Source: a virus (taxonomy: Duplodnaviria; Heunggongvirae; Uroviricota; Caudoviricetes). Taken from it: 43,699 bases of DNA. The stretch lies in IMG/VR virus record IMGVR_UViG_2851982317_000004; one strand, 5' to 3'. Shown one piece after another: positions 1 through 43,699 of the stretch. How positions within the stretch are numbered: position 1 is the first letter of the stretch; every line of letters begins with the position of its first letter. A model generated the notes under the pieces. That model saw only the letters and a program-made list of their open reading frames with translations, was not told where the DNA came from and made no database searches. The position numbers and the translations under genes were made by a program.

Positions 1-1119
1 TCAAATAACCAACTTAACCCATTCCTGACCTCGAGTATCGTTATAGCGATCGGTGGTTGCCTGGACTTTATGCCCCAGTAATGTTTTTGTATCGACACCC
101 TGTGCCCGGTACAGCCGTTCTGACAGGGAACGTTGTTCATGAAATGTTGGTGGTGTTTTTCCTGCTGGTGGAATTATTCCAGCCAGGTCCCGTGCTTTGG
201 CAAAGTAATCGCTCAGGTTGTCTTTACTCATCGGCTTCGGTTGTTTCTGGTGCCGACTATGGATTAGATATGGACTTAATATTCTGTCTCGGCACCCATC
301 AATAACTTCTTTTAACGTTATCCCAATGGCATCACAGCGTAGTGTAAGCGGTAACGCCAGACGCATTCCGGTTTTTCCCTGGGTGATATGCAGGTGTTCG
401 TTCCACACATCTGAAAAACGCATGTGGCAAATGTCATCACGGCGCTGACCAGTAACAATCGCAAGAAGCATTGCGTTACGGATAAAGTGTTTTTCAGGCG
501 TTGCGTTGTAAATTTTTTGCCAGTCTTCCAGGGTGAGCCTGGCTCTGGTTACTTTAGGGATCGGTTTACGGGTAGCCTCCGGAGGATTCCATCCAGGAGG
601 AACTTCCCCTGCATGCTGTGCTTCTTTATAAATATCAACCCATAATCCACGATTTACTCTCGCTGTGCTGACCATGTCTTTATCCAGCCACTCATCCAGT
701 ATTAATGCAAAGTCTCTTACTTCCAGTTCTTTCAATGGGTGGTTTCCCAGACGGGAAACCAGGTATGCAGCCATTCGGGCTTTTTCTTTGTGAGTTGTAG
801 TTGCAATATCCCCATTTTTCAGTCGCGTGTCCTGTATTTTCAGATATCGATCAACCCATGCCTTTAATCTGATACCCCGACGTTTTGTTGCTGACGGACT
901 TTCATCAATTTTGCGCATGAAATATTCAGCTTCTGCTGCAGCTATTCGCTGATTGGCTGTGGAAGCGATTTTTTCTGCTTTGCCTTTGTCTGTTCCGAGA
1001 CCGTGAAATTTTCCAGTCACAGGGTTTTTATACTGGTAGTAAACCCTGCCAGTTCTGCGATCAAACTTTTCGTAAAGACCGGTTACGTCAGTGCTGTTTT
1101 TTCGTGGCCTCGGTGACAT
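1..1119 (-). CDS. int: Phage integrase, tyrosine recombinase
   Basis: 372 aa ORF at the prophage edge with integrase-like length and C-terminal region (HxxR-like ...LLGHKVQATTDRY...); stop codon at window positions 1-3; xis-like ORF overlaps its 5' end. Confidence 0.88.
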   Translation of the reverse strand: MSPRPRKNSTDVTGLYEKFDRRTGRVYYQYKNPVTGKFHGLGTDKGKAEKIASTANQRIAAAEAEYFMRKIDESPSATKRRGIRLKAWVDRYLKIQDTRLKNGDIATTTHKEKARMAAYLVSRLGNHPLKELEVRDFALILDEWLDKDMVSTARVNRGLWVDIYKEAQHAGEVPPGWNPPEATRKPIPKVTRARLTLEDWQKIYNATPEKHFIRNAMLLAIVTGQRRDDICHMRFSDVWNEHLHITQGKTGMRLALPLTLRCDAIGITLKEVIDGCRDRILSPYLIHSRHQKQPKPMSKDNLSDYFAKARDLAGIIPPAGKTPPTFHEQRSLSERLYRAQGVDTKTLLGHKVQATTDRYNDTRGQEWVKLVI

Positions 1120-1366
1120 GAGTTAAAATCTCCTTCAGTGCATCATCATCGCCAGTATGAATTTCCGGCGCAATTCCCGTTTCACCAGGTCCAACAAATA
1201 CTGCCCGGCGATCTATCAGCCAACGCCCACGAATTTTTTGTGGTCTTGGAACGATGTATCCTAGTTTTCCGTATTTCACCAGGGTAGTGTTTGTTATTGG
1301 GAGACTGAACCGTTTTGGTTTCCACTCATCGAGCGTTATCAGGTACTGTTCGCTCATGGCTATCAC
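1088..1366 (-). CDS. xis: Excisionase-like protein
   Basis: 92 aa ORF overlapping the int start by about 30 nt; N-terminal YLITLDEW resembles the YLTLQEW start of lambda Xis (from memory). Confidence 0.7.
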   Translation of the reverse strand: MIAMSEQYLITLDEWKPKRFSLPITNTTLVKYGKLGYIVPRPQKIRGRWLIDRRAVFVGPGETGIAPEIHTGDDDALKEILTHVTEATKKQH

Positions 1367-1418
1367 TCCGGAACGCGCCAGTTGCAGAATACCAACGACA
1401 ACTGGCGACGGTTGAACA

Positions 1419-3890
1419 TTAAAAATCAGCCTGATTCGGAATCAGTTTTTGCCAGATAGCTGAAACGTATTTTGCCTGGTAACGGGCGTCATCAAGTGCA
1501 TTATGGCGCTCACCTTCGAATGGAATAGCCGTTCTGGCATCGAAGTCTATGGCTTTCCCCAGCTCAACGATTGTGCGTACATCGCGATCGTTGTAGTAAC
1601 GCCACGGGCAGGGGATCCCCTGCCGTTCGTATGAACGGCGCAAAATCGTGTTGTCGAAGTTGGCTCCATTTCCCCAGACCTGAACAAAAAATTCACCGGA
1701 GTTTTCGTCGATAAATTCCCGCAATTGTAACAGTGCATCATCTAACGGGATTTCATCGGTCATAATGGCAGATTGCGCTTCGCGTGATTGCTTAAGCCAC
1801 CATTTAATGGTGTCCCGATCAATGACTCCGCCAGCAGTTTCCAGATCGATAGTCTTACTAAATTCCGGTCCCATATCTCCGGTTTGCGGATCGAAAAATA
1901 TTGCACCTATTGAGATAATCGGGGCATCAGGATTTTTTCCCATGGTTTCAAGGTCGATCATTAGATGGTCACACGTCCTACTGGCGGATGTGATTTCGTG
2001 ATGACCGTTCACCTTAATTGAGTGATCTGCCGTCTCGCCAGTTTCATTATCGCTATTGTGATGCTGATTGCCGCCAGTGTTCTTCTTGTTTGGATGTTCA
2101 GCGCCTTCCATTTCCTCCGGATCATCTTCCTGAACTTCAACCTGATACTCTTCATCGAATGTTTCCTGGTATGTTGCGTCGCCCATCACCGCGCCACAAT
2201 CAGGGCAGTTGCCGCCGCCGGTCTGACCGCAGGCGGTGCAGATCTTTTCCGGTTCCTGTTGCACTACTGGTTCAGGTTGTTTCGTTTCTTGCTCGTTTTG
2301 TAACGCATTTGGGCTGTTTTGTTCCGCTTTCTGGCCGTTCTGTTCCGTTTCTTGCTGGTTCTGGTTCACAGAATCGCGGGTTTCCATCCCCTTCACCCAT
2401 TTCGGATCATTCGGATCGCTAATTCCTACAACAAATTCACCACGTGATACTGCAAGCAGTTCATCGGCGTCAGGCTGGCTGATATTGGCTGCCTGCATAA
2501 TGTTGTTTACTTCGTCAGCGGTAACTTTTACCGGCCCTGGTTGTGCGGTCGTGTCAGATGCACCAGTATTTTGTTGTGAACCTGAGTATGTACTGTTTTT
2601 GCGGACGAAATATTCTTCTTTCGTGATTTCAGTAGCCCCGGCAGCCAGTGCCTTATCCAGACCAGAAAGTTTGTTTGCGCGACCGTATTTTTCACCATCC
2701 TTGTCGGTGAAGAGGAAGTAGAACGGCCCCTCACGCTCTACAGATGGTTCGACTTCCACTTTGCATTCGGTTTTTTCGTTGTCCGGAATTGCCGTTTCCA
2801 CTGCATCAGTTTCTGGTACTGGCGACGAGAGAGTATCAGTTGCGATCTGATTTGTTCCTTCATCTTCAAACACGCCCTTTGTAGTCAGGTATTCAGTAAT
2901 GTATTTGTTCAGTGCCACAGGGTCTTTGTGAATGTCGATCGGACGCTCACGGACAAGGCCAAAAATAGTCTGGCGGTCGTAGCGAAGGGCATCAGGCTGT
3001 TTGCGCATTGATGCTGAGATACGCTTCCAGTCTTCGCGGTCGTTGTTGATAACTTCATTTTTTGCCCAGCGATGGATGCTGCCGTCAATGTTTCCGGCAT
3101 CAATGTCACCAGGCCACAGAGCGTAGGCCAGTTCATCATCCAGTGTTTTCCATGTCTGCTTATATTCGCGACGAATGACTGCAGTGACAGGGGGGATATT
3201 TTCTGCTGAGTTTTCAGTGTGCTGTCGGTTGACTCTGGCGCGGGCGAGATCAACAGCAGACGTGTATTTTCCGGTTTCCTTGCGTTCACCTTCGCGACGT
3301 TTTTTCCAGATGCGCATCTCTGCCTGAATTTCGGGCCATTTAGCTCCAGGCTTACATTTATGCTTAACCCACCCGATGGCATGCAACTTAAGTTCTGGAT
3401 ACATGGCGTTAACTTCTGGCATTTTCATCAACGCTTCAACGATATGTCCGTCGAATGTTGCCATGTCTTCCTGCAACAGTTCCTGTGCACTAATCACCAT
3501 ATCAACGGTGATGTTTTCACATGTGTCGAACTTAACCATGACAGCGTTCTGTACTTCAGGGGCCAGCTTGTCAAAAGTGACGTTCATCGGATCTGATTCA
3601 GTCTCAACCGGGACAAAGGAAGCTGACTCCTCATCCCAGCGGTTTTCCTGCATATATTCAGCATCCCAGGAATCGAGGGCAGGGCGGGGTATACCGGGTT
3701 TATCCTCGCAAACAAGAAATTTATAAGCGCAGTCCTGAGCAGCCGGATATTGCTCCAGGAATTGCCAGGTAAATTTGGCACGGGCGCGGCGTTCGTCGCC
3801 AGCTTCAATGGCAGTGGCTACAGCGACTGCACCTTCTTCCTTTATTGCCTGTTCGTCCGGAATAGCGGCGCAAATAAAGACTTTACTCAT
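1419..3890 (-). CDS. Large exonuclease: RecE-like central region plus C-terminal DEDDh 3'-5' exonuclease domain
   Basis: 823 aa. C-terminal ~180 aa carry DnaQ-like motifs (MIDLETMG, WGNGANFD, HNALDDARY). The segment LLAVSRGEFVVGISDPNDPKWVKG resembles, from memory, a conserved stretch of Rac RecE. Sits directly upstream of xis/int. Confidence 0.75.
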   Translation of the reverse strand: MSKVFICAAIPDEQAIKEEGAVAVATAIEAGDERRARAKFTWQFLEQYPAAQDCAYKFLVCEDKPGIPRPALDSWDAEYMQENRWDEESASFVPVETESDPMNVTFDKLAPEVQNAVMVKFDTCENITVDMVISAQELLQEDMATFDGHIVEALMKMPEVNAMYPELKLHAIGWVKHKCKPGAKWPEIQAEMRIWKKRREGERKETGKYTSAVDLARARVNRQHTENSAENIPPVTAVIRREYKQTWKTLDDELAYALWPGDIDAGNIDGSIHRWAKNEVINNDREDWKRISASMRKQPDALRYDRQTIFGLVRERPIDIHKDPVALNKYITEYLTTKGVFEDEGTNQIATDTLSSPVPETDAVETAIPDNEKTECKVEVEPSVEREGPFYFLFTDKDGEKYGRANKLSGLDKALAAGATEITKEEYFVRKNSTYSGSQQNTGASDTTAQPGPVKVTADEVNNIMQAANISQPDADELLAVSRGEFVVGISDPNDPKWVKGMETRDSVNQNQQETEQNGQKAEQNSPNALQNEQETKQPEPVVQQEPEKICTACGQTGGGNCPDCGAVMGDATYQETFDEEYQVEVQEDDPEEMEGAEHPNKKNTGGNQHHNSDNETGETADHSIKVNGHHEITSASRTCDHLMIDLETMGKNPDAPIISIGAIFFDPQTGDMGPEFSKTIDLETAGGVIDRDTIKWWLKQSREAQSAIMTDEIPLDDALLQLREFIDENSGEFFVQVWGNGANFDNTILRRSYERQGIPCPWRYYNDRDVRTIVELGKAIDFDARTAIPFEGERHNALDDARYQAKYVSAIWQKLIPNQADF

Positions 3891-15093: not shown

Positions 15094-16143
15094 ATGATTA
15101 ATACTGTAAAAATATCCAGTTGTGAGTTAATCAACGCTGATTGCCTGGAGTTTATCCAGACCTTACCGGAAAACTCTGTCGATCTGATAGTCACAGACCC
15201 GCCATACTTTAAAGTGAAGCCCGAGGGCTGGGATAACCAGTGGAAGGGCGACGATGATTACCTGAAATGGCTGGACCAGTGTCTGGCGCAGTTCTGGCGG
15301 GTACTGAAGCCTGCCGGAAGTCTTTACCTGTTCTGTGGTCATCGCCTGGCATCTGACACCGAAATCATGATGCGTGAGCGCTTTAATGTGCTGAACCACA
15401 TTATCTGGGCGAAGCCGTCCGGACGCTGGAACGGGTGCAATAAGGAAAGTCTGCGGGCGTATTTTCCGGCAACAGAGCGCATTCTGTTTGCAGAACATTA
15501 TCAGGGACCGTATCGCCCGAAAGATGATGGCTATGTGGCACAGGGGCGCGAGCTAAAACAGCACGTCATGGCCCCGCTGATTTCTTACTTTCGTGATGCG
15601 CGTAAATCACTGGGAATAACGTCAAAACAGATAGCGGAAGCCACCGGAAAGAAAAACATGGCTTCGCACTGGTTTGGTGCCAGTCAGTGGCAGTTACCGA
15701 ACGAGGGTGATTACAATAAATTGCAGGCGTTGTTTGCGCGTGTTGCGGCAGAAAAACATCAGCGCGGGGAACTGGAAAAGCCACACCACCAGCTGGTCAG
15801 CACATACAGTGAGCTGAACCGGCAGTACACGGAACTGCTGAGTGAATATAAAAATTTGCGGCGGTATTTCGGTGTGACGGCGCAGGTTCCGTACACCGAT
15901 GTCTGGACGCATAAACCGGTGCAGTACTATCCAGGAAAACATCCGTGCGAAAAACCGGCAGAAATGCTGCAGCAGATAATCAACGCGAGCAGTCGTCCGG
16001 GAGACCTGGTTGCAGATTTTTTTATGGGTTCAGGTTCAACGGTAAAAGCGGCGATGGCACTGGGGCGTTGTGCGATTGGTGTTGAGCTGGAGACAGGACG
16101 TTTTGAACAGACAGTCAGGGAAGTTCAGGATTTAATCGTTTGA
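15094..16143 (+). CDS. DNA N6-adenine (or N4-cytosine) methyltransferase, beta-class
   Basis: 349 aa; motif IV DPPY (VTDPPYF) near the N-terminus and motif I FxGxG (FFMGSGST) near the C-terminus. Confidence 0.88.
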   Translation: MINTVKISSCELINADCLEFIQTLPENSVDLIVTDPPYFKVKPEGWDNQWKGDDDYLKWLDQCLAQFWRVLKPAGSLYLFCGHRLASDTEIMMRERFNVLNHIIWAKPSGRWNGCNKESLRAYFPATERILFAEHYQGPYRPKDDGYVAQGRELKQHVMAPLISYFRDARKSLGITSKQIAEATGKKNMASHWFGASQWQLPNEGDYNKLQALFARVAAEKHQRGELEKPHHQLVSTYSELNRQYTELLSEYKNLRRYFGVTAQVPYTDVWTHKPVQYYPGKHPCEKPAEMLQQIINASSRPGDLVADFFMGSGSTVKAAMALGRCAIGVELETGRFEQTVREVQDLIV

Positions 16144-16192
16144 AACGGATGAGATTGCAGAATTAATTACGCACCATTATTATTCTGCTCCC

Positions 16193-16268
16193 GGCCCTTT
16201 AGCTCAGTGGTGAGAGCGAGCGACTCATAATCGCCAGGTCGCTGGTTCAAATCCAGCAAGGGCCACCA
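16193..16268 (+). tRNA. ileZ: tRNA with anticodon CAU, probably tRNA-Ile2 (lysidine type; ileX/ileZ-like), Met not excluded
   Basis: Hand-folded cloverleaf: acceptor GGCCCTT/AAGGGCC, D-arm GCTC/GAGC, anticodon loop CTCATAA, T-arm GCTGG-TTCAAAT-CCAGC, encoded CCA; close to E. coli ileX as I recall it. Confidence 0.85.
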
Positions 16269-16275
16269 TCACATA

Positions 16276-16352
16276 CCGCCATTAGCTCATCGGCAGAGAG
16301 CGTCAGCTTTCGAAACTGGCTGTGTGGGGCTCGGGTCCCCGATGGCAATCCA
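16276..16352 (+). tRNA. tRNA-like gene, non-canonical; possible tRNA-Arg (anticodon UCG, argN-like)
   Basis: Hand fold gives a D-arm GCTC/GAGC, anticodon loop TTTCGAA and encoded CCA, but positions 1-2 are unpaired C-A, the anticodon stem has a mismatch and the T-loop is CTCGGGT instead of TTCRANY. Confidence 0.4.
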
Positions 16353-16365
16353 TTATCTGCATTAT

Positions 16366-16442
16366 GCGTTGTTAGCTCAGCCGGACAGAGCAATTGCCTT
16401 CTAAGCAATCGGTCACTGGTTCGAATCCAGTACAACGCGCCA
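16366..16442 (+). tRNA. argO: tRNA-Arg (anticodon UCU, argU/argO-like)
   Basis: Hand-folded cloverleaf: acceptor GCGTTGT/ACAACGC, anticodon arm ATTGC-CTTCTAA-GCAAT, T-arm ACTGG-TTCGAAT-CCAGT, encoded CCA. Confidence 0.85.
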
Positions 16443-34832: not shown

Positions 34833-37800
34833 ATGGGTAAAGGCAGCAGTAAGGGGCATACCCCGCGCGAAGCGAAGGACAACCTGAAGTCCACGCAGCT
34901 GCTGAGTGTGATCGATGCCATCAGTGAAGGGCCGGTTGAAGGTCCGGTGGATGGATTAAAAAGCGTGCTGCTGAACAGTACGCCGGTGCTGGACAATGAG
35001 GGGAATACCAACATCTCCGGCGTCACGGTGGTGTTCCGGGCAGGTGAGCAGGAGCAGTCACCGCCGGAGGGGTTTGAATCCTCCGGCTCCGAGACGGTGC
35101 TGGGTACGGAAGTGAAATATGACACGCCGATCACCCGGACCATCACGTCGGCAAACATCGACCGTCTGCGCTTTACCTTCGGTGTACAGGCACTGGTGGA
35201 AACCACCTCAAAGGGAGACAGGAATCCGTCGGAAGTCCGCCTGCTGGTTCAGATACAGCGTAACGGTGGCTGGGTGACAGAAAAAGACATCACCATTAAG
35301 GGCAAAACCACGTCGCAGTATCTGGCCTCAGTGGTGGTGGATAACCTGCCGCCGCGCCCGTTTAATATCCGGATGCGCAGGATGACGCCGGACAGCACCA
35401 CAGACCAGCTGCAGAACAAAACGCTCTGGTCGTCATACACCGAAATTATCGATGTGAAACAGTGCTACCCGAACACGGCACTGGTCGGCGTGCAGGTGGA
35501 CTCGGAGCAGTTCGGCAGCCAGCAGGTGAGCCGTAATTATCATCTGCGCGGGCGTATTCTGCAGGTGCCGTCGAATTATAACCCGCAGACGCGGCAATAC
35601 AGCGGTATCTGGGACGGAACGTTTAAACCGGCATACAGCAACAACATGGCCTGGTGTCTGTGGGATATGCTGACCCACCCGCGCTACGGCATGGGGAAAC
35701 GTCTTGGTGCGGCAGATGTGGATAAATGGGCGCTGTATGTTATCGGCCACTACTGCGACCAGTCGGTGCCGGACGGCTTTGGCAGCACGGAGCCGCGCAT
35801 CACCTGTAATGCCTGGCTGACCACACAGCGCAAGGCGTGGGATGTGCTCAGCGATTTCTGCTCGGCGATGCGCTGTATGCCGGTATGGAACGGGCAGACG
35901 CTGACGTTCGTGCAGGACCGGCCATCGGATAAGGTGTGGACCTATAACCGCAGTAATGTGGTGATGCCGGATGATGGCGCGCCGTTCCGCTACAGCTTCA
36001 GCGCCCTGAAGGACCGCCATAATGCCGTTGAGGTGAACTGGATTGACCCGAATAACGGCTGGGAGACGGCGACAGAGCTTGTGGAGGACACGCAGGCCAT
36101 TGCCCGTTACGGTCGTAACGTCACGAAGATGGATGCCTTTGGCTGTACCAGCCGGGGGCAGGCACACCGCGCCGGGCTGTGGCTGATTAAAACGGAACTG
36201 CTGGAAACGCAGACCGTGGATTTCAGCGTGGGTGCTGAAGGGCTTCGCCATGTACCGGGCGATGTCATTGAAATCTGTGATGATGACTATGCCGGTATCA
36301 GCATCGGCGGGCGCGTGCTGGCGGTGAACAGCCAGACCCGGACGCTGACGCTCGACCGTGAAATCACGCTGCCATCCTCCGGTACCACGCTGATAAGCCT
36401 GGTTGACGGAAGTGGCAATCCGGTCAGCGTGGAGGTCCAGTCCGTCACCGACGGCGTGAAGGTAAAAGTGAGCCGTGTTCCTGACGGCGTTGCCGGATAC
36501 AGCGTGTGGGGGCTGAAGCTGCCGACGCTGCGCCAGCGCCTGTTCCGCTGCGTGAGTATCCGTGAGAACGACGACGGCACGTATGCCATCACCGCCGTGC
36601 AGCATGTACCGGAAAAAGAAGCCATCGTGGATAACGGGGCGCACTTTGACGGCGACCAGAGCGGCACGGTGAATGGTGTCACGCCGCCAGCAGTGCAGCA
36701 CCTGACTGCCGAAGTCACCGCAGACAGCGGGGAGTATCAGGTACTGGCCCGCTGGGATACGCCGAAGGTGGTGAAGGGCGTGAGCTTCCTGCTCCGTCTG
36801 ACCGTAACAGCGGATGACGGCAGTGAGCGGCTGGTCAGCACGGCCCGGACGACGGAAACCACATACCGCTTCACGCAACTGGCGCTGGGGCGGTACACGC
36901 TGACAGTCCGGGCGGTAAATGCGTGGGGACAGCAGGGCGATCCGGCATCGGTATCGTTCCGGATTGCCGCACCGGTAGCACCGTCGCGGATTGAGCTGAC
37001 GCCGGGGTATTTTCAGATAACCGCCACGCCGCATCTTGCGGTTTATGATCCGACGGTACAGTTTGAGTTCTGGTTCTCGGAAAAGCGGATTACCGATATC
37101 AGGCAGGTTGAAACCAGCGCGCGTTATCTTGGTACGGGGCTGTACTGGATAGCTGCCAGTATCAATATCAAACCGGGCCATGATTATTACTTTTATATCC
37201 GCAGTGTGAACACCGTTGGCAAATCGGCATTCGTGGAGGCTGTTGGTCAGCCGAGTGATGACGCATCCGGCTATCTGGATTTTTTCAAAGGCGAGATAGG
37301 GAAAACCCATCTGGCTCAGGAGCTGTGGACGCAGATTGATAACGGTCAGCTTGCGCCTGACCTGGCTGAAATCAGGACATCCATTACGGATGTCAGCAAT
37401 GAAATCACACAGACCGTCAATAAGAAACTGGAAGACCAGAGTGCAGCGATCCAGCAGATACAGAAGGTTCAGGTTGATACAAATAATAATCTGAACAGCA
37501 TGTGGGCTGTGAAGCTGCAGCAGATGCAGGACGGACGCCTTTATATTGCGGGTATCGGTGCCGGTATTGAGAACACCCCCGACGGCATGCAGAGTCAGGT
37601 GCTGCTGGCGGCAGACAGGATTGCGATGATTAATCCTGCAAATGGCAACACAAAACCGATGTTTGTTGGTCAGGGTGATCAGATATTCATGAACGACGTG
37701 TTCCTGAAACGCCTGACGGCCCCCACCATTACCAGCGGCGGTAATCCTCCGGCATTTTCCCTGACACCGGACGGGCGGCTGACGGCGAAAAATGCCGATA

Positions 37801-38093
37801 TCAGCGGTAACGTGAATGCGAACTCCGGGACGCTCAACAACGTCACGATTAACGAGAACTGTCGGGTTCTGGGAAAATTGTCCGCCAACCAGATTGAAGG
37901 CGATCTCGTTAAAACAGTGGGCAAAGCTTTCCCCGGGACTCCCGTGCACCGGAACGGTGGCCATCAGGGACCATCACCGTCAGGGTTTATGACGATCAGC
38001 CGTTTGACCGGCAGATTGTTATTCCGGCGGTGGCATTCAGCGGCGCTAAACATGAGCGGGAGAATAACGATATTTATTCGTCATGCCGCCTGA
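34833..38093 (+). CDS. J: Host specificity / tip attachment protein J, frame lost near the 3' end
   Basis: 1086 aa ORF with lambda J-like N-terminus; the last ~55 codons read as nonsense, and the conserved J C-terminus continues in a different frame (ORF 38030..38311). Confidence 0.85.
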
Positions 38094-38311
38094 TAGTACG
38101 GAAAAACGGTGCTGAAATTTATAACCGTACCGCGCTGGATAATACGCTGATTTACAGTGGTGTTATTGATATGCCAGCTGGTCGCGGCCACATGACGCTG
38201 GAGTTTTCGGTGTCAGCATGGCTGGTAAATAACTGGTATCCCACAGCAAGTATCAGCGATTTGCTGGTTGTGGTGATGAAGAAAGCCACCGCAGGCATCA
38301 GTATCAGCTGA
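38030..38311 (+). CDS. J: C-terminal segment of J in a shifted frame (pseudogene fragment or sequencing error)
   Basis: The frame reads ...[92 protein letters not shown], matching the lambda J C-terminal receptor-binding end as I recall it. Confidence 0.7.
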
Positions 38312-38329
38312 ATTTTATAACCCATATAC

Positions 38330-38354
38330 GGGCGCCAGAAATGGCGCCTTTTTT
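38330..38354 (+). terminator. Intrinsic terminator after J
   Basis: Stem GGGCGCC / GGCGCC with 6-nt loop followed by T6. Confidence 0.55.
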
Positions 38355-38378
38355 ATTGCAGAAAAGCGAGAGGTAATT

Positions 38379-38978
38379 ATGCGTAAAGTTTGTTCAGCCA
38401 TTTTGTCCGCAGCCATCTGTCTGGCCGTATCCGGTGCACCTGCATGGGCGTCTGAGCAGCAGGCCACACTGAGCGCAGGGTATCTTCATGCCCGTACGAA
38501 CGCTCCCGGCAGCGATAATCTGAACGGGATTAACGTGAAATACCGTTATGAGTTTACGGACACGCTGGGGCTGATTACGTCATTCAGTTATGCCAACGCT
38601 GAAGATGAGCAAAAAACGCATTACAGCGATACCCGCTGGCATGAAGATTCCGTGCGTAACCGCTGGTTCAGCGTGATGGCGGGGCCGTCTGTGCGCGTGA
38701 ATGAATGGTTCAGCGCGTATGCGATGGCGGGTATGGCTTACAGCCGTGTTTCGACTTTCTCCGGAGATTATATCCGCGTAACTGACAACAAGGGGAAAAC
38801 GCACGATGTGCTGACCGGAAGTGATGACGGTCGCCACAGCAACACGTCTCTGGCGTGGGGAGCTGGCGTGCAGTTTAACCCGACCGAATCCGTGGTTATT
38901 GATGTCGCTTATGAAGGCTCCGGCAGTGGTGACTGGCGCACTGACGGTTTCATCGTGGGTGTCGGTTATAAATTCTGA
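38379..38978 (+). CDS. lom: Lom-like outer membrane protein (Ail/Lom/PagC family)
   Basis: 199 aa with N-terminal signal peptide (…[10 protein letters not shown]), beta-barrel-like alternating pattern and C-terminal YKF; lambda lom position between J and stf. Confidence 0.85.
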
Positions 38979-39004
38979 TTAGCCAGGTAACACAGTGTTA
39001 TGAC

Positions 39005-39033
39005 AGCCCGCCGGTTCAGGCGGGCTTTTTTGT
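39005..39033 (+). terminator. Intrinsic terminator after lom
   Basis: Stem AGCCCGCC / GGCGGGCT with 6-nt loop followed by T6. Confidence 0.6.
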
Positions 39034-39036
39034 GGG

Positions 39037-42000
39037 GTGAATATGGCAGTAAAGATTTCAGGTGTACTGAAAGACGGCACAGGAAAACCGGTACAGAACT
39101 GCACAATCCAGCTGAAAGCAAAACGTAACAGTACCACTGTGGTGGTGAACACGCTGGCCTCAGAAAATCCGGATGAAGCCGGGCGTTACAGTATGGACGT
39201 TGAGTACGGTCAGTACAGCGTTATTCTGTTGGTGGAGGGATTCCCGCCGTCACATGCCGGGACCATCACCGTGTATGAAGATTCTCAACCCGGTACGCTG
39301 AATGATTTTCTCGGTGCCATGACGGAGGATGATACCCGTCCGGAGGCACTGCGACGTTTTGAACTGATGGTGGAAGAGGTGGCGCGTAACGCGTCCGCGG
39401 TGGCACAGAACACAGCAGCCGCGAAGAAGTCAGCCAGCAATGCCAGCACATCAGCCCGTGAGGCGGCAACCCATGCGACTGATGCTGCAGGCTCAGCACG
39501 CGCAGCCAGCACGTCAGCCGGACAGGCCGCGTCGTCGGCTCAGTCAGCGTCTTCCAGCGCAGGAACGGCATCAGCAAAGGCCACTGAAGCATCAAAAAGT
39601 GCTGCCGCTGCAGAGTCCTCAAAAAGCGCGGCGGCTACCAGTGCCGGTGCGGCGAAAACGTCAGAAACGAATGCGGCAGCGTCACAACAATCTGCAGCCA
39701 CTTCTGCATCCGCCGCGACCACAAAGGCGTCAGAAGCTGCCACCTCAGCCCGGGATGCGGCGGCCTCAAAAGAGGCAGCGAAATCATCAGAAACGAACGC
39801 ATCATCAAGCGCCAGTAGTGCCGCTTCCTCGGCAACGGCGGCAGGAAATTCCGCGAAGGCGGCAAAGACGTCCGAGACGAACGCCAGGTCTTCTGAAACG
39901 GCAGCGGAACAGAGTGCCTCCGCAGCAGCAGGCTCAAAAACAGCGGCTGCGTCGTCTGCCAGTGCAGCGTCAACAAGTGCCGGGCAGGCCTCAGCCAGTG
40001 CCACTGCCGCCGGAAAATCGGCAGAAAGCGCTGCATCGTCCGCTTCAACAGCTACAACGAAGGCTGGCGAAGCCGCTGAACAGGCCAGCGCAGCAGCGAG
40101 GTCTGCATCCGCAGCGAAGACATCCGAAACGAATGCGAAAGCGTCGGAAACCAGTGCAGAATCCTCAAAAACGGCAGCCGCATCGTCAGCCAGTTCGGCG
40201 GCGTCATCGGCATCATCGGCGTCTGCTTCAAAAGATGAGGCGACCAGACAGGCGTCAGCAGCGAAGGGCAGCGCCACGACGGCATCCACGAAGGCGACAG
40301 AGGCAGCTGGCAGTGCGACGGCGGCAGCACAGAGCAAAAGTACAGCAGAATCCGCGGCAACGCGCGCCGAGACAGCAGCAAAACGGGCAGAGGATATTGC
40401 ATCCGCCGTGGCGCTGGAGGATGCGAGCACGACGAAAAAGGGGATAGTACAGCTCAGCAGTGCAACAAACAGCACCAGTGAAAAGCTGGCGGCAACGCCA
40501 AAGGCAGTTAAAACTGTTAAAGATAGTTCAGTTCAAAAAACTGGCGACACAATGGGAGGGCAGTTAAAAATCAGCACGATAAATGCTCTTCGAATATTCA
40601 ACCAAGCCTTTGGCCTTATTTTTAGGCGTTCCGAAGATCATCTTCATCTTATTCCGACTAATGAAGGAGAGGGGGAAAATGGAGACATCGGTTCATTAAG
40701 ACCATTCTCTATAAACTTAAGATCAGGGTTGGTGTCCATCGGTAATGGACTAAAAGTTGGTGGTAGTGTTACTGGTAATTTGACCGGAAACGCAGATACT
40801 GCGACCAAGATCAAGACAGCACGTAAGATTGGGGGCGTGGCATTTGATGGATCGGCAGATATCAACTTGCCTGGAGTCAACGCTACCGGTAATCAAAACA
40901 CTACAGGTAATGCTGCGACCGCCACGAAACTTCAGGCAGCCAGAACGATTAACGGTGTGTCATTTGATGGTAGTGCAAATATCACATTGACCCCTTCAAA
41001 TATTGGGGCATTGGCATTAACTGGAGGGACTCTTTCAGGTGGTTTAACTGCTGCTGGTGAGGTTATTTCAAGGTCAGCAAATGGTCTGCGTATTGCCTAT
41101 GGCAACTATGGATTCTTTATCCGAAATGATGGATCAAACACATATTTTATGTTGACAGATTCGGGTAACAGTCTTGGTACGTACAATAGCTTAAGGCCGT
41201 TTATAATTAGTAACCATACTGGCAATGTTACAATTGCAACTAAATTAAACGCGAGTGGTGGTATCACTGGATCTTTATCGGGTAATGCAAGCACAGCAAC
41301 CAAATTGCAAACTGCAAGGACAATTAACGGCGTAAAATTTGACGGCTCGGCAAATATTGAAGCGTTTCCGCCAGGTGTTCCGCTGCCGTGGCCATCAGAT
41401 ACACCACCTGCAGGTTATGCAATCATGCAGGGGCAGACGTTTGATAAGGCAGCATATCCGAAACTGGCTATTGCCTATCCTTCAGGTGTTATTCCAGATA
41501 TGCGCGGCTGGACAATCAAGGGCAAACCCGCCAGTGGCCGGGCCGTATTGTCTCAGGAACAGGACGGCATTAAATCGCACACCCACAGCGCCAGCGCATC
41601 CAGTACGGATTTGGGGACGAAAACCACATCGTCGTTTGATTACGGCACTAAATCCACGAATAACACCGGGGCGCATACGCACAGTCTGAGTGGCTCTACG
41701 GGGTCTGCCGGTGTTCATACTCATGGTAATGGTATTCGTTGGCCAGGAGGCGGCGGTTCTGCGTTAGCATTTTATGATGGCGGTGGGTTCACTTATGTCC
41801 AGAATTCACAGTATCAAGTAAGCCCGGAGACTTCTTCCTATAGATCGTATTATCAACGTATTCAGACACAGTCAGCAGGTGCTCATACCCACTCGCTGTC
41901 TGGTACTGCAGCAAGTTCTGGCGCACATGCACATACTGTAGGTATTGGTGCGCATACGCACTCCGTTGCGATTGGTTCACATGGACACACCATCACCGTT

Positions 42001-42069
42001 AACGCTGCGGGTAACGCGGAAAACACCGTCAAAAACATCGCATTTAACTATATTGTGAGGCTTGCATAA
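39037..42069 (+). CDS. stf: Side tail fibre protein Stf (mosaic); likely true start ATG at 39043
   Basis: N-terminus [26 protein letters not shown] matches lambda Stf as I recall it; long Ala/Ser-rich repeat region; three tandem ~45 aa repeats (TGN..TATK..TAR.I.GV.FDGSA.I); C-terminal His-rich GAHTHS repeats ending [11 protein letters not shown]. Confidence 0.9.
39380..40450 (+). repeat. Degenerate in-frame tandem repeats encoding the Ala/Ser/Thr-rich Stf shaft
   Basis: Repeated SA..S.TNA..S..SA-type units in the Stf translation; the GC-rich periodic DNA also creates long spurious ORFs on other frames. Confidence 0.6.
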
Positions 42070-42653
42070 TGGCATTCAGAATGAGTGAACAAGCACGGAC
42101 CATAAAAATTTATAATCTGCTGGCCGGAACTAATGAATTTATTGGTGAAGGTGACGCATATATTCCGCCTCATACAGGTCTGCCAGCAAACAGTACCGAT
42201 ATTGCACCACCAGATATTCCTGCTGGCTTTGTGGCTGTTTTCAACAGTGATGAGGCATCGTGGCATCTCGTTGAAGACCATCGGGGTAAAACGGTTTATG
42301 ACGTAGCGTCAGGGGACGAGTTATTTATTTCTGAACTCGGTCCGTTACCGGAAAATGTTACCTGGTTATCGCCGGAAGGGGAGTTTCAGAAGTGGAACGG
42401 CACAGCCTGGGTGAAGGATACGGAAGCAGAAAAACTGTTCCGGATCCGGGAGGCGGAAGAAACAAAAAACAACCTGATGCAGGTAGCCAGTGAGCATATT
42501 GCGCCGCTTCAGGATGCTGCAGATCTGGAAATTGCAACGGAGGAAGAAACCTCATTGCTGGAAGCCTGGAAAAAGTATCGGGTGTTGCTGAACCGTGTTG
42601 ATACATCAACTGCACCTGATATTGAGTGGCCTACGAACCCTGTCAGGGAGTAA
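42069..42653 (+). CDS. tfa: Tail fibre assembly protein Tfa
   Basis: 194 aa; ATG overlaps the stf stop (TAATG); colinear with lambda Tfa as I recall it (MAFRMSEQ..., C-terminal IAPLQDA...IEWP). Confidence 0.85.
42492..42653 (+). repeat. Direct repeat copy 1 (tfa 3' end)
   Basis: About 160 bp highly similar to 43541..43699 (the reading frame is preserved in both copies). Confidence 0.7.
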
Positions 42654-42667
42654 TCATTGGGATTATG

Positions 42668-42700
42668 CCGCAGCACGTCTTAAGCAAGAACGTGCTGCGG
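42668..42700. terminator. Perfect 11-bp hairpin between convergent tfa and the methyltransferase gene
   Basis: CCGCAGCACGT / ACGTGCTGCGG with 11-nt loop; a T6 run follows about 10 nt downstream on the plus strand. Confidence 0.4.
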
Positions 42701-42707
42701 TTGGATG

Positions 42708-43376
42708 CTATTTTTTCCCTGAAGCGGAAAACATTACTACAGTACCTTGAACCTTGGTTTTAACATTCTCGAAATGCTCTGAGAGTATATGTGTTAAGCC
42801 TTCTTCGGAATCTTTTGTGTTTGAAAAGATGCCTTTCTGATTGTAAATGCGCATCAGTTTTTGACCGAAGCTATTGTGCACAACTCCATCGCCAAGAATT
42901 GTGGCTCCGTATAGAGTTCCATCGTCAGTTAAGGCCTGCGCCGCATTGCGTATTACACAGCTTTTTGTAGATATATTTCCAGGCAGGCAGTGAAGAAGGT
43001 AAAACATGGAAATGGAATCAAATTGACCATGTAACGCCGCGGGATAAGGTTCAAAAACATCATGGCTAATTTTATGTTTAATTTTTGATTCCCCAGCCCT
43101 TGTCGATGCCGCGTTCAGGCTAGCTTCGTTCAAATCCATTAAAGATATCAGACTACTCTCAGGTACGTGAGTAAGGTAAAACCCAGTTCCAACACCAATA
43201 TCCAGATGGTTGTTACCTACATGTTCCAGAAAGTGTGGAAGAAGGTGTTCCTTTGTAGGACATCCCCATGCAAGCCGATTTGATACTCCCAAAACCCACC
43301 AGTCATAAAGCTTTAGGGTAAGTGGTGTGTAAATTTTAGCCCCATCATCTGTGTTTTTTTTCATTGATTTCACCAT
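42708..43376 (-). CDS. Class I SAM-dependent methyltransferase (cargo gene)
   Basis: 222 aa with motif I-like LDIGVGTGFY; AT-rich relative to the flanking tail genes; start may be the second ATG (43364), which has a GGTGA Shine-Dalgarno-like site. Confidence 0.65.
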   Translation of the reverse strand: MVKSMKKNTDDGAKIYTPLTLKLYDWWVLGVSNRLAWGCPTKEHLLPHFLEHVGNNHLDIGVGTGFYLTHVPESSLISLMDLNEASLNAASTRAGESKIKHKISHDVFEPYPAALHGQFDSISMFYLLHCLPGNISTKSCVIRNAAQALTDDGTLYGATILGDGVVHNSFGQKLMRIYNQKGIFSNTKDSEEGLTHILSEHFENVKTKVQGTVVMFSASGKK

Positions 43377-43432
43377 GTTATAGTTTTATTTGTGAATTAA
43401 ATCAATTATGGCGATGAATTACAAGGGGTTAA

Positions 43433-43699
43433 ATGCTGCCGCAGCATAGCGATATTGAAATAGCCTGGTATGCTTCGATACAGCAGGAGCCGAATGGCTG
43501 GAAGACCGTCACCACACAGTTCTACATCCAGGAATTCAGTGAGTATATTGCGCCACTGCAGGATGCTGTAGATCTGGAAATCGCAACGGAGGAAGAAAGA
43601 TCGTTGCTGGAGGCATGGAATAAATATCGGGTATTGTTGAATCGTGTTGATACATCAACTGCACCTGATATTGAGTGGCCGACTTCACCTGCAGAGTAA
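43433..43699 (+). CDS. Tfa-like C-terminal fragment (second, divergent tfa remnant)
   Basis: 88 aa ORF whose last ~52 aa ([52 protein letters not shown]) closely match the Tfa C-terminus; the upstream part is unrelated; the stop coincides with the window end. Confidence 0.55.
43541..43699 (+). repeat. Direct repeat copy 2 (tfa-like 3' end)
   Basis: Matches 42492..42653 with scattered substitutions; the two copies bracket the methyltransferase gene. Confidence 0.7.

Follow-up and report, generated by a model that had tools for sequence, protein, structure and literature searches.

The closest described counterpart of the locus analysed here lies in the DLP12 prophage of E. coli K-12 MG1655, in which tfaD, ybcY and tfaX (b0561-b0563) follow one another. 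This tfa-ybcY-tfaX arrangement is already known: it has been annotated in K-12 for decades and is found in most E. coli genomes. The stretch of viral DNA that we analysed (43,699 nucleotides, hereafter the window) carries at its right end these three elements, likewise ordered and oriented, with the same hairpin and the same divergent spacer, and the DLP12 block is 96.9% identical to positions 42215-43679. As in DLP12, the upstream neighbour of ybcY is the 3' end of a tfa gene and its downstream neighbour a tfaX lacking its 5' part. The K-12 copy of ybcY is a frameshifted pseudogene, however, and tfaD is truncated at its 5' end, whereas tfa and ybcY are both intact in the window. The surroundings differ as well: the K-12 block is followed by appY-ompT-envY, whereas the window prophage is not at the argU/ompT (DLP12) location, with appY or a hydrolase gene and then ompT, but at potB, with host DNA directly after it. 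Since the K-12 copy is a pseudogene, ybcY is dispensable in the laboratory, and this is one likely reason why YbcY is unstudied. The literature that we found on ybcY and tfaX consists of gene lists, a SELEX table and descriptions of the ompT context, with no functional study.

The lambdoid morons offer a further comparison. The moron concept is said to come from Hendrix and colleagues, with lambda lom and bor as its examples among lambdoid phages. ybcY resembles lom and bor in being a single accessory gene of lower GC that is present or absent among similar phages, with a putative promoter of its own, a hairpin at its 3' end and a place between the late genes and the attachment site. In contrast, lom and bor encode envelope proteins and YbcY is a cytoplasmic-type enzyme. 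lom itself lies just upstream in the window (38379-38978). Some likeness also exists to the invertible fibre segments of Mu (G, with gin), P1 (C, with cin) and e14 (P, with pin), in that a fibre gene is followed by two neighbouring sequences of the tfa family and that some relatives have a pin-family gene close by.

We think it likely that the window takes in the end of the right arm of a lambda-like prophage at potB, where ybcY would be a moron beside a tfa remnant and the tfa 3' end a recombination joint. Along this arm we would read stf and tfa, both functional, followed by the hairpin, an oppositely oriented ybcY, a dead tfa of the tfaX type, and attR. As a self-contained accessory gene, ybcY would rely on a sigma-70 promoter of its own (43377-43432 spacer) for transcription that does not depend on the late operon, and its transcript would probably end at, or be stabilised by, a hairpin shared with the end of that operon. 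YbcY would act as a stand-alone class I SAM-dependent methyltransferase on a small molecule (metabolite or lipid-like) and not on DNA. The tfa 3' sequence would serve as a homologous-recombination joint at which fibre modules are swapped on the left and cargo on the right, the tfa remnant being a by-product left behind by such an exchange.

The first tfa (42069..42653, plus strand) is an intact lambda-type gene encoding a side-tail-fibre assembly chaperone of 194 aa. Its product matches Pfam Caudo_TAP over profile positions 1-130 of 131 (E=1.9e-44), its start overlaps the stf stop codon by 1 nt (ATAATG), and PGAP labels it 'tail fiber assembly protein' in a genome identical to the window. The second tfa closes the gene order of the prophage; attR and host potB come next. 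The short tfa-like ORF at this point (43433-43699, 88 aa) carries the repeated sequence as its 3' part, just as the original prediction had it, and its Caudo_TAP match is limited to profile positions 75-131 of 131; a full-length domain, as expected of a functional Tfa, is absent. PGAP annotates exactly 43526..43699 in the identical genome as a pseudogene ('tail fiber assembly protein; incomplete; missing N-terminus'). The 31 codons with which the ORF opens (43433..43525, unstranded) are filler not recognisable as tfa: by tblastn and PHROG, the similarity to tfa begins only at residues 27-32, and in Ayreon this segment is present without the subsequent tfa repeat. In strain CE10, PGAP annotates the minus strand of 43451-43531 as a DinI-family fragment, which Pfam, giving no match, did not confirm.

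What the two genes share is a direct repeat. A repeat search aligned 42477-42634 with 43526-43683 over 158 ungapped nt at 87% identity (blastn E=3e-51), the copies being 1049 bp apart, and a global alignment extended the repeat as far as the stop codon of each gene (177 vs 174 nt, with one 3-nt indel near the end). The recurrence of about 160 bp of the tfa end had been predicted correctly, apart from starts at 42492 and 43541 that were 15 nt too late. Copy 1 (42477..42653, plus strand) encodes the conserved C-terminal part of Tfa, and copy 2 (43526..43699, plus strand) is a 5'-truncated tfa pseudogene of the tfaX type by Caudo_TAP, PGAP and likeness to K-12 tfaX. Both are in the same codon register, and their 20 mismatches amount to 11 synonymous and 7 non-synonymous codon differences; divergence that is in frame and mostly synonymous fits two once-functional tfa genes. 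To judge from their sequences, the two copies represent the conserved 3' portions of tfa genes that have diverged, and not a duplication made by insertion. The idea of cargo inserted by recombination survives in part: ybcY has the marks of accessory cargo (low GC, opposite strand, absence from lambda, deletion in Ayreon), but the bracketing repeats do not stem from its insertion. Nor is the repeat an assembly artefact, as had been allowed for, since three independent complete genomes carry the 1700-bp segment at 100% identity; at least 80% of this length was found in 1498 complete genomes.

Both copies are also matched by an Rfam model for a candidate sRNA, RF02111 'IS009', at 42412-42610 (225 bits) and 43456-43659 (112.5 bits). 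Here, however, the first match lies wholly within the intact tfa reading frame, and what the family represents is most likely the conserved coding sequence at the 3' end of tfa, not a separate RNA gene. Apart from IS009, no Rfam family was matched, the hairpin giving sub-threshold noise only. The 9-mer GCCGCAGCA is found on both sides of the cassette, at 42667 and 43438, and occurs three times in the window vs 0.69 expected; it was rejected as an insertion footprint and is probably due to chance, three copies being reached by 4 of 100 shuffles.

Between the repeats lies ybcY (42708..43376, minus strand), annotated at 222 aa as a class I SAM-dependent methyltransferase. Its start is probably the ATG at 43364, with GGTGA just upstream, which gives 218 aa, because all 32 aligned homologues begin at Met5. 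The GC content of the gene is 41.3%, vs 48.0% for tfa, 52.7% for stf and 55.1% for the late region; this distinct composition goes together with presence or absence among homologous phages (lambda, HK629, HK630 and Ayreon). A hairpin of 15 pairs with one bulge (42667..42701, unstranded) lies between the convergent stop codons, 13 nt past that of tfa and 6 nt past that of ybcY. Its folding energy is -28.6 kcal/mol on the plus strand (z = -4.6; none of 200 shuffles was equally stable) and -25.4 kcal/mol on the minus strand (z = -4.2). A methyltransferase gene of lower GC on the opposite strand, with a hairpin of its own between the repeats, is what the original prediction described. A consensus scan did not call the hairpin as a terminator, as neither strand has a U-run immediately after the stem; the two genes may share it as a 3'-end or terminator structure. 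The hairpin moves together with ybcY: homology to the window begins at 42668 in Turner, PhiR68_2 and ECC-1470.

On the other side of the gene, consensus scanning and reading of the sequence point to candidate sigma-70 promoters for ybcY in the divergent spacer (43377..43432, minus strand). These are TTAACC-16-CATAAT at 43432..43405 and TTGATT-17-TATAAC at 43406..43377, both on the minus strand; promoter-like hexamers are thus present, but their regional count is not above that of shuffles. Genomic SELEX in K-12 placed an RpoD-holoenzyme site, flagged for H-NS, in the ybcY/tfaX spacer and assigned TTGATT-17-TATAAC to ybcY, an in-vitro result for the K-12 homologue (PMC3946193). ybcY would use this promoter and the putative terminator and would be expressed in the lysogen, with such benefit to the host as it may bring.

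The fold class of the enzyme is clear. The profile search that had been proposed for it returned Pfam Methyltransf_12/23/25/11, with Methyltransf_12 at 37.5 bits against a cut-off of 30. YbcY has the glycine-rich motif I, the acidic residue ending strand 2 and the seven-stranded alpha/beta fold of a class I Rossmann-fold methyltransferase, and motif I DIGVGTG (D59-x-G61-x-G63-T64-G65), D81, H105-D106 and D120 are invariant in 33 aligned sequences. The structure model has a pLDDT of 89, and YbcY models with confidence as a methyltransferase of the small-molecule type. The proteins nearest to it in structure and in sequence are without exception methyltransferases of small molecules or lipids, namely JHAMT (7ec0), UbiG (4kdr), phosphatidylethanolamine (PE) N-methyltransferase (8ys9), SgvM (8ftr), DhpI (3ou2) and BelI (9fce), with JHAMT and UbiG the best relatives at the sequence level. 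Identity to YbcY is at most 21% throughout, and none of the solved small-molecule class I methyltransferases stands out as its match; the PDB searches by sequence and by fold are flat and give class but no function. The bacterial PE N-methyltransferase is among the better structural matches, which is not specific evidence for a role in lysogenic conversion. No named NCBIfam family applies either, the best models (CpaM, RquA and PmtA) reaching 16-18 bits vs cut-offs of 175-390 (at best 18 bits vs 180). The invariant YDWWVL, HCLPG and YNxKGIFSN motifs define a distinct and uncharacterised family, PHROG 2132. Among distant relatives, one is fused to a P450 domain (at 38% identity) and one to RCC1, which weakly favours a small-molecule role, and a metabolite or lipid-like compound would be the substrate.

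YbcY could instead act on a macromolecule, be it phage or host DNA (in anti-restriction), an RNA (tRNA or rRNA) or a protein, for instance the tail fibre. This would suit its place next to the tail-fibre genes and the fact that DNA methyltransferases are common in phages, but YbcY has no PP dipeptide, no (D/N/S)PP(Y/F) motif, no match to a DNA-methylase Pfam family and, within its 218 aa, no target-recognition domain. The same searches readily recognised a separate DNA methylase already in the prophage (ORF 15094-16143, N6_N4_Mtase, E=2e-44), which served as a positive control. The kinship with JHAMT and UbiG also points away from a macromolecule, and the homologues of YbcY are solitary genes in chromosomal, non-phage contexts, so that the substrate should not be phage-specific. 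No defence link is indicated, since a PADLOC defence-system search gave only a match of 12.9 bits, at chance level. We consider a macromolecular target improbable, and the original call of a small-molecule-type class I enzyme rather than a DNA methyltransferase agrees with the missing PP and DNA-methylase Pfam matches.

The view of ybcY as a moron at a recombination joint draws on the junctions of the module. Extending the locus to the right, as had been suggested, places host potB 232 bp past the window edge in the identical genome, with the gene order potB-potA-pepT, and this 100%-identical genome has no invertase or partner gene right of the window. Any partner genes had been placed there; host genes follow instead, and the homologues of ybcY stand alone. 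On the left, the window and PhiR26_1 have a full lambda-type tfa, and in 2G7b, CE10 and Ayreon no more than the final ~120-145 nt of the gene are present, preceded by a different fibre. Turner, PhiR68_2 and ECC-1470 have a pinR-ydfK/ynaE block inserted between tfa and the hairpin, and O157:H7 has catalase, ferritin and stress genes there. The right junctions vary too (43462, 43519, 43657 and 43680), and beyond them lie ompT, a hydrolase gene and ompT, appY and ompT, or host potB. The conserved tfa 3' end acts as a recombination joint among lambdoid phages.

Lambda, HK629 and HK630 have tfa without ybcY. Ayreon was considered as an empty site and rejected: the body of ybcY is precisely deleted in an internal event with 4-nt microhomology, and it is a deletion because the last 12 codons and the promoter spacer are retained. 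Since comparison with relatives lacking the insert, which had been put forward as a way to define its boundaries, yielded no true empty site, the order of events (ybcY inserted between two tfa genes, or arriving together with one) remains inferred.

These junctions bear on a somewhat less probable alternative than a macromolecular target, in which the tfa repeats are working recombination substrates and the ybcY cassette is gained and lost between them, the bracketing itself being the mechanism. Repeats of 158 nt at 87% identity, direct and 1049 bp apart, are long enough for RecA or Red, and the bracketing by tfa 3' ends persists with different fibre genes in 2G7b and CE10. However, a synthetic deletion junction, in which the 5' part of tfa was joined to the 3' end of tfaX, was matched over its full length at no more than 95.3% identity among 5426 genomes. 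Ayreon, the one ybcY-less relative found, lost the gene by its internal deletion and not through the repeats, and CT30 keeps ybcY without tfaX. We thus hold this mechanism to be very unlikely. It is just as doubtful, and would be offered only as speculation, that YbcY is a lysogenic-conversion enzyme, a phage-spread small-molecule or lipid methyltransferase that methylates the head-group of an envelope lipid or a toxic compound from outside; if so, the lysogen would differ in phage adsorption, in its resistance to antimicrobial peptides or in its tolerance of toxins.

Least credible, and largely refuted already, is the suggestion that the second tfa remains from an alternative fibre cassette that a Pin/Gin invertase once flipped (as in Mu G, P1 C and e14 P), for although a PinQ/PinR-type serine recombinase lies between tfa and ybcY in some relatives and a second tfa downstream of the first recalls the U/U' pairs, the window copies are direct whereas invertible segments carry the alternative tfa inverted, there are no gix/pix-like crossover sites above chance and no alternative fibre C-terminus, inverted repeats are absent from 38000-43699 except for short chance-level pairs (none >19 nt), crossover cores of the AAACCNNGGTTT type show no enrichment (3 in number, a count that 17 of 100 shuffles reach) and the one inside ybcY is without flanking half-sites, no serine invertase is encoded in 38000-43699 or right of the window in the identical genome, and the pinR-ydfK of the relatives is an extra block between an intact tfa and the hairpin.

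With ybcY read as a moron, the locus is a clean illustration of the tfa 3' end as a joint at which lambdoid phages swap fibre modules and cargo. The structure of the locus itself matters little; its interest lies in YbcY as a very widespread, intact, phage-borne methyltransferase, whose substrate, once found, would add one lysogenic-conversion function, with no sign of a new kind of system. A search with the cassette (42654-43525, 872 bp, at least 95% identity) found it in 3797 of 5426 complete E. coli genomes (70%), with 1-4 copies in each and 4956 in all, and it is also present in about 15 sequenced lambdoid phage genomes. With this prevalence, and the K-12 DLP12 module, the reading of the gene as a recent, notable insertion is not supported. 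The identical genome itself has the cassette at a second place. ybcY is intact in 9 of 9 non-K-12 copies examined, and the family is under purifying selection (dN/dS 0.12 vs Enterobacter). The Enterobacter chromosomal homologue aligns as DNA with 42737-43426, a stretch that takes in 50 nt ahead of the start. The homologues that are 56-68% identical stand alone on the chromosome in differing contexts, with no shared neighbour in Salmonella, Enterobacter and Yersinia, and comparison of these sequences suggests that ybcY was probably captured from an enterobacterial chromosome. In the roughly 70% of E. coli that carry it, ybcY is often found beside ompT and lom.

The window is a lambda-like E. 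coli prophage that runs from a lambda-type integrase gene (1-1119, minus strand) through to the tail-fibre region, where lom (38379-38978) and the side tail fibre gene stf (39037-42069) lead into tfa (42069-42653), whose 194-aa product has a full Caudo_TAP domain. Beyond tfa lie a 222-aa ORF on the opposite strand (42708-43376), which matches the Pfam families Methyltransf_12, 23, 25 and 11, and a plus-strand ORF of 88 aa (43433-43699), whose end coincides exactly with the window edge. The repeat finder pairs 42477-42634 with 43526-43683 (158 nt, 87%; E=3e-51 by blastn), confirming the original prediction of a methyltransferase gene bracketed by direct repeats of the tfa 3' end. The repeat is real and not an artefact: three complete genomes have the 1.7-kb stretch at 100% identity, and 1498 have at least 80% of it. 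The alignment of the copies reaches both stop codons with a single 3-nt indel and a shared codon register, and 11 of the codon differences are synonymous and 7 non-synonymous. The Tfa profile match of the 88-aa ORF is limited to its last 57 positions; sequence and profile comparison with tfa found no recognisable tfa in the first 31 codons (43433-43525), and in strain 203740, 100% identical to the window, PGAP annotates 43526-43699 as a tail fibre assembly pseudogene lacking its N-terminus. Judged from sequence, the repeats are the conserved 3' ends of two tfa genes that have diverged, one of which is dead, and the mostly synonymous divergence fits two genes that were once functional.

This reading follows from the relatives, which form a mosaic whose joints gather within or near the 3' ends of the two tfa copies. 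On the left, the window and PhiR26_1 carry a full lambda-type tfa; in K-12 it is cut off at 42215, and 2G7b, CE10 and Ayreon have other fibre genes, behind which stand just the final ~120-145 nt of tfa (from 42533 or 42508). In Turner, PhiR68_2 and ECC-1470 the lambda-type tfa is intact; next come ~1.75 kb with pinR and ydfK/ynaE-like (also ynaM-like) genes (locus 2354-3676 in ECC-1470), and homology restarts at 42668, the hairpin start. In O157:H7 ATCC 43888 (locus 1337-3550), a manganese catalase gene, two ferritin-like genes and a general stress-protein gene occupy this same position, between the stop codon of tfa and the hairpin of ybcY; the short spacer 3' of tfa is a cargo hotspot. On the right, homology ends at 43657 (followed by a hydrolase gene and ompT), 43680 (appY and ompT), 43519 (Ayreon) or 43462 (CT30, where ompT follows directly and tfaX is absent). 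The notion that the repeats are a duplication made by the insertion of ybcY is rejected on these joints. What stands of the cargo claim is that ybcY is most likely a moron, an accessory gene that is probably transcribed independently, on the opposite strand and with a GC content of 41.3% versus 48-55% in neighbouring regions; its insertion did not produce the repeats.

Comparison with prophages lacking the insert, proposed as a way to define its boundaries, yielded a single relative without ybcY, phage Ayreon (MF807953.1, locus 3522-3870), in which window positions 42508-42743 directly adjoin 43403-43519, the two stretches overlapping by 4 nt. Ayreon has cleanly lost 659 bp of the ybcY body and retains the hairpin, the final 12 codons of the gene and the promoter spacer, behind a different fibre gene of the endosialidase-chaperone type; it is rejected as an empty site and represents an internal deletion. 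When a synthetic junction of the tfa 5' part and the tfaX 3' end was searched against 5426 genomes, nothing matched it at full length above 95.3%; a clean deletion via the repeats was not seen. The suggestion of an invertible fibre segment fails, since the tfa copies are in direct orientation, a repeat search of the region found no meaningful inverted repeats, the Hin/Gin/Pin crossover core occurs at chance level, no invertase is present (right flank of the identical genome included) and the pinR of some relatives belongs to an additional inserted block.

Extending rightward, where any partner genes would have to lie, reaches the end of the prophage: in strain 203740 the next genes, 232 bp past the window edge, are host potB, potA and pepT, with no invertase, further fibre segment or partner gene, and E24377A has the same right flank. 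Nor is the arrangement novel. The tfa-ybcY-tfaX module is already known, ordinary and very common: K-12 MG1655 carries tfaD, ybcY (a pseudogene), tfaX, appY and ompT in this order in its cryptic prophage DLP12, with 96.9% identity to window 42215-43679, and the methyltransferase is annotated as YbcY in PhiR26_1. Of 5426 complete E. coli genomes, 3797 have the 872-bp cassette between the repeats (42654-43525) at ≥95% identity, in 1-4 copies each; it also occurs in about 15 sequenced lambdoid phages.

Each of the 32 aligned homologues starts at Met5 of the annotated ybcY ORF, a codon preceded by GGTGA, which makes a protein of 218 aa from 43364 the probable real product. Motif I (D59, G61, G63-T64-G65), D81, H105-D106 and D120 are among the invariant residues, and family-specific motifs are YDWWVL (24-29), HCLPG (129-133) and YNxKGIFSN (178-186); AlphaFold gives a confident model (pLDDT 89.1, pTM 0.86). 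The proposal of a small-molecule-type enzyme rather than a DNA methyltransferase is supported: the only enzymes found in the PDB by sequence and by profile were juvenile-hormone acid methyltransferase and UbiG (E=7e-6 to 1e-3), and YbcY had no DNA-methylase motif or family match, the prophage's separate N6_N4 methylase (15094-16143) serving as positive control. Profile searching gave the class; NCBIfam, PHROGs and PADLOC assigned no function (PHROG family 2132 is of unknown function). At E≤1e-30 the family comprises about 200 representative clusters, and nearly every one is a stand-alone protein of 215-240 aa. Two distant relatives that look eukaryotic carry fusions, to a C-terminal cytochrome P450 in one (P0254, 719 aa, 38% identity) and to an RCC1-repeat domain in the other (P0170, 743 aa), which hint at a role in small-molecule tailoring. 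Homologues of 56-68% identity in Salmonella, Enterobacter and Yersinia sit alone on the chromosome, in three contexts unrelated to one another. The Enterobacter gene aligns at the DNA level with 42737-43426, a stretch that takes in the 50 nt before the start; this fits a chromosomal gene having been captured along with the region upstream of it. Outside K-12, all nine ybcY copies examined in E. coli and phages are intact, and dN/dS against Enterobacter is 0.12 (dS saturated).

Promoter use, terminator function, lysogen expression and substrate class are what we infer for ybcY. Transcription would probably start from its own sigma-70 promoter within the 43377-43432 spacer, where consensus scanning and reading of the sequence give two candidates, TTAACC-16-CATAAT and TTGATT-17-TATAAC. 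The latter was assigned to ybcY by genomic SELEX, which also recorded RpoD holoenzyme binding, flagged for H-NS, in the spacer between ybcY and tfaX of K-12 (PMC3946193). The transcript would converge with the late operon at the shared hairpin (42667-42701; 15 pairs, -28.6 kcal/mol, z = -4.6 on folding of the window sequence), a putative terminator, and YbcY would methylate a small molecule using SAM. The literature on ybcY and tfaX consists of gene lists, a SELEX table, a phenotype-negative mention and descriptions of ompT genomic context; we found no functional study of either gene. YbcY is a very widespread phage-borne methyltransferase.

Several minor features were also seen. In strain CE10 the minus strand equivalent to 43451-43531 carries a PGAP call for an N-terminal fragment of the DinI family; a Pfam search of this fragment gave no match, and its sole non-identical phage match is Ayreon (72%). 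Rfam RF02111 'IS009', a candidate sRNA family tied to phage sequences (bioRxiv 10.64898/2026.05.13.724894), matches 42412-42610 (225 bits) and 43456-43659 (112.5 bits, slightly below the gathering score of 117), and probably merely captures conserved tfa coding sequence. The plus-strand 9-mer GCCGCAGCA occurs at both cassette edges, in the left arm of the hairpin (42667-42675) and in a small palindrome, ATGCTGCCGCAGCAT, at the 88-aa ORF start (43438-43446); with three copies in the window versus 0.69 expected, and at least three in 4/100 shuffles, its placement is probably chance. A 45-aa 'hypothetical protein' (PGAP, WP_001309429.1; 42626-42763, plus strand) reaches across the tfa stop and the hairpin into the 3' end of ybcY and is almost certainly spurious. 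Within stf, 39400-40450 is Ala/Ser/Thr-rich and internally repetitive (GC 60-64%), with many imperfect direct repeats spaced by 21-63 nt (families D2-D7), and its other frames contain long spurious ORFs. J (34833-38311) is split: a 1086-aa ORF (34833-38093) runs out of frame at its end, and a separate ORF (38030-38311) holds the C-terminal receptor-binding domain (Ig_GpJ_C, profile 43-135). Within 37700-38330 the window has 631 nt versus 632 in related phages, indicating a 1-nt deletion, which points to a defective prophage or a sequencing error. Directly after the N6_N4 methylase ORF come three tRNA genes (Met-CAT, Arg-TCG, Arg-TCT; 16193-16442), and this order (15094-16442) is typical of lambdoid or Stx phages.
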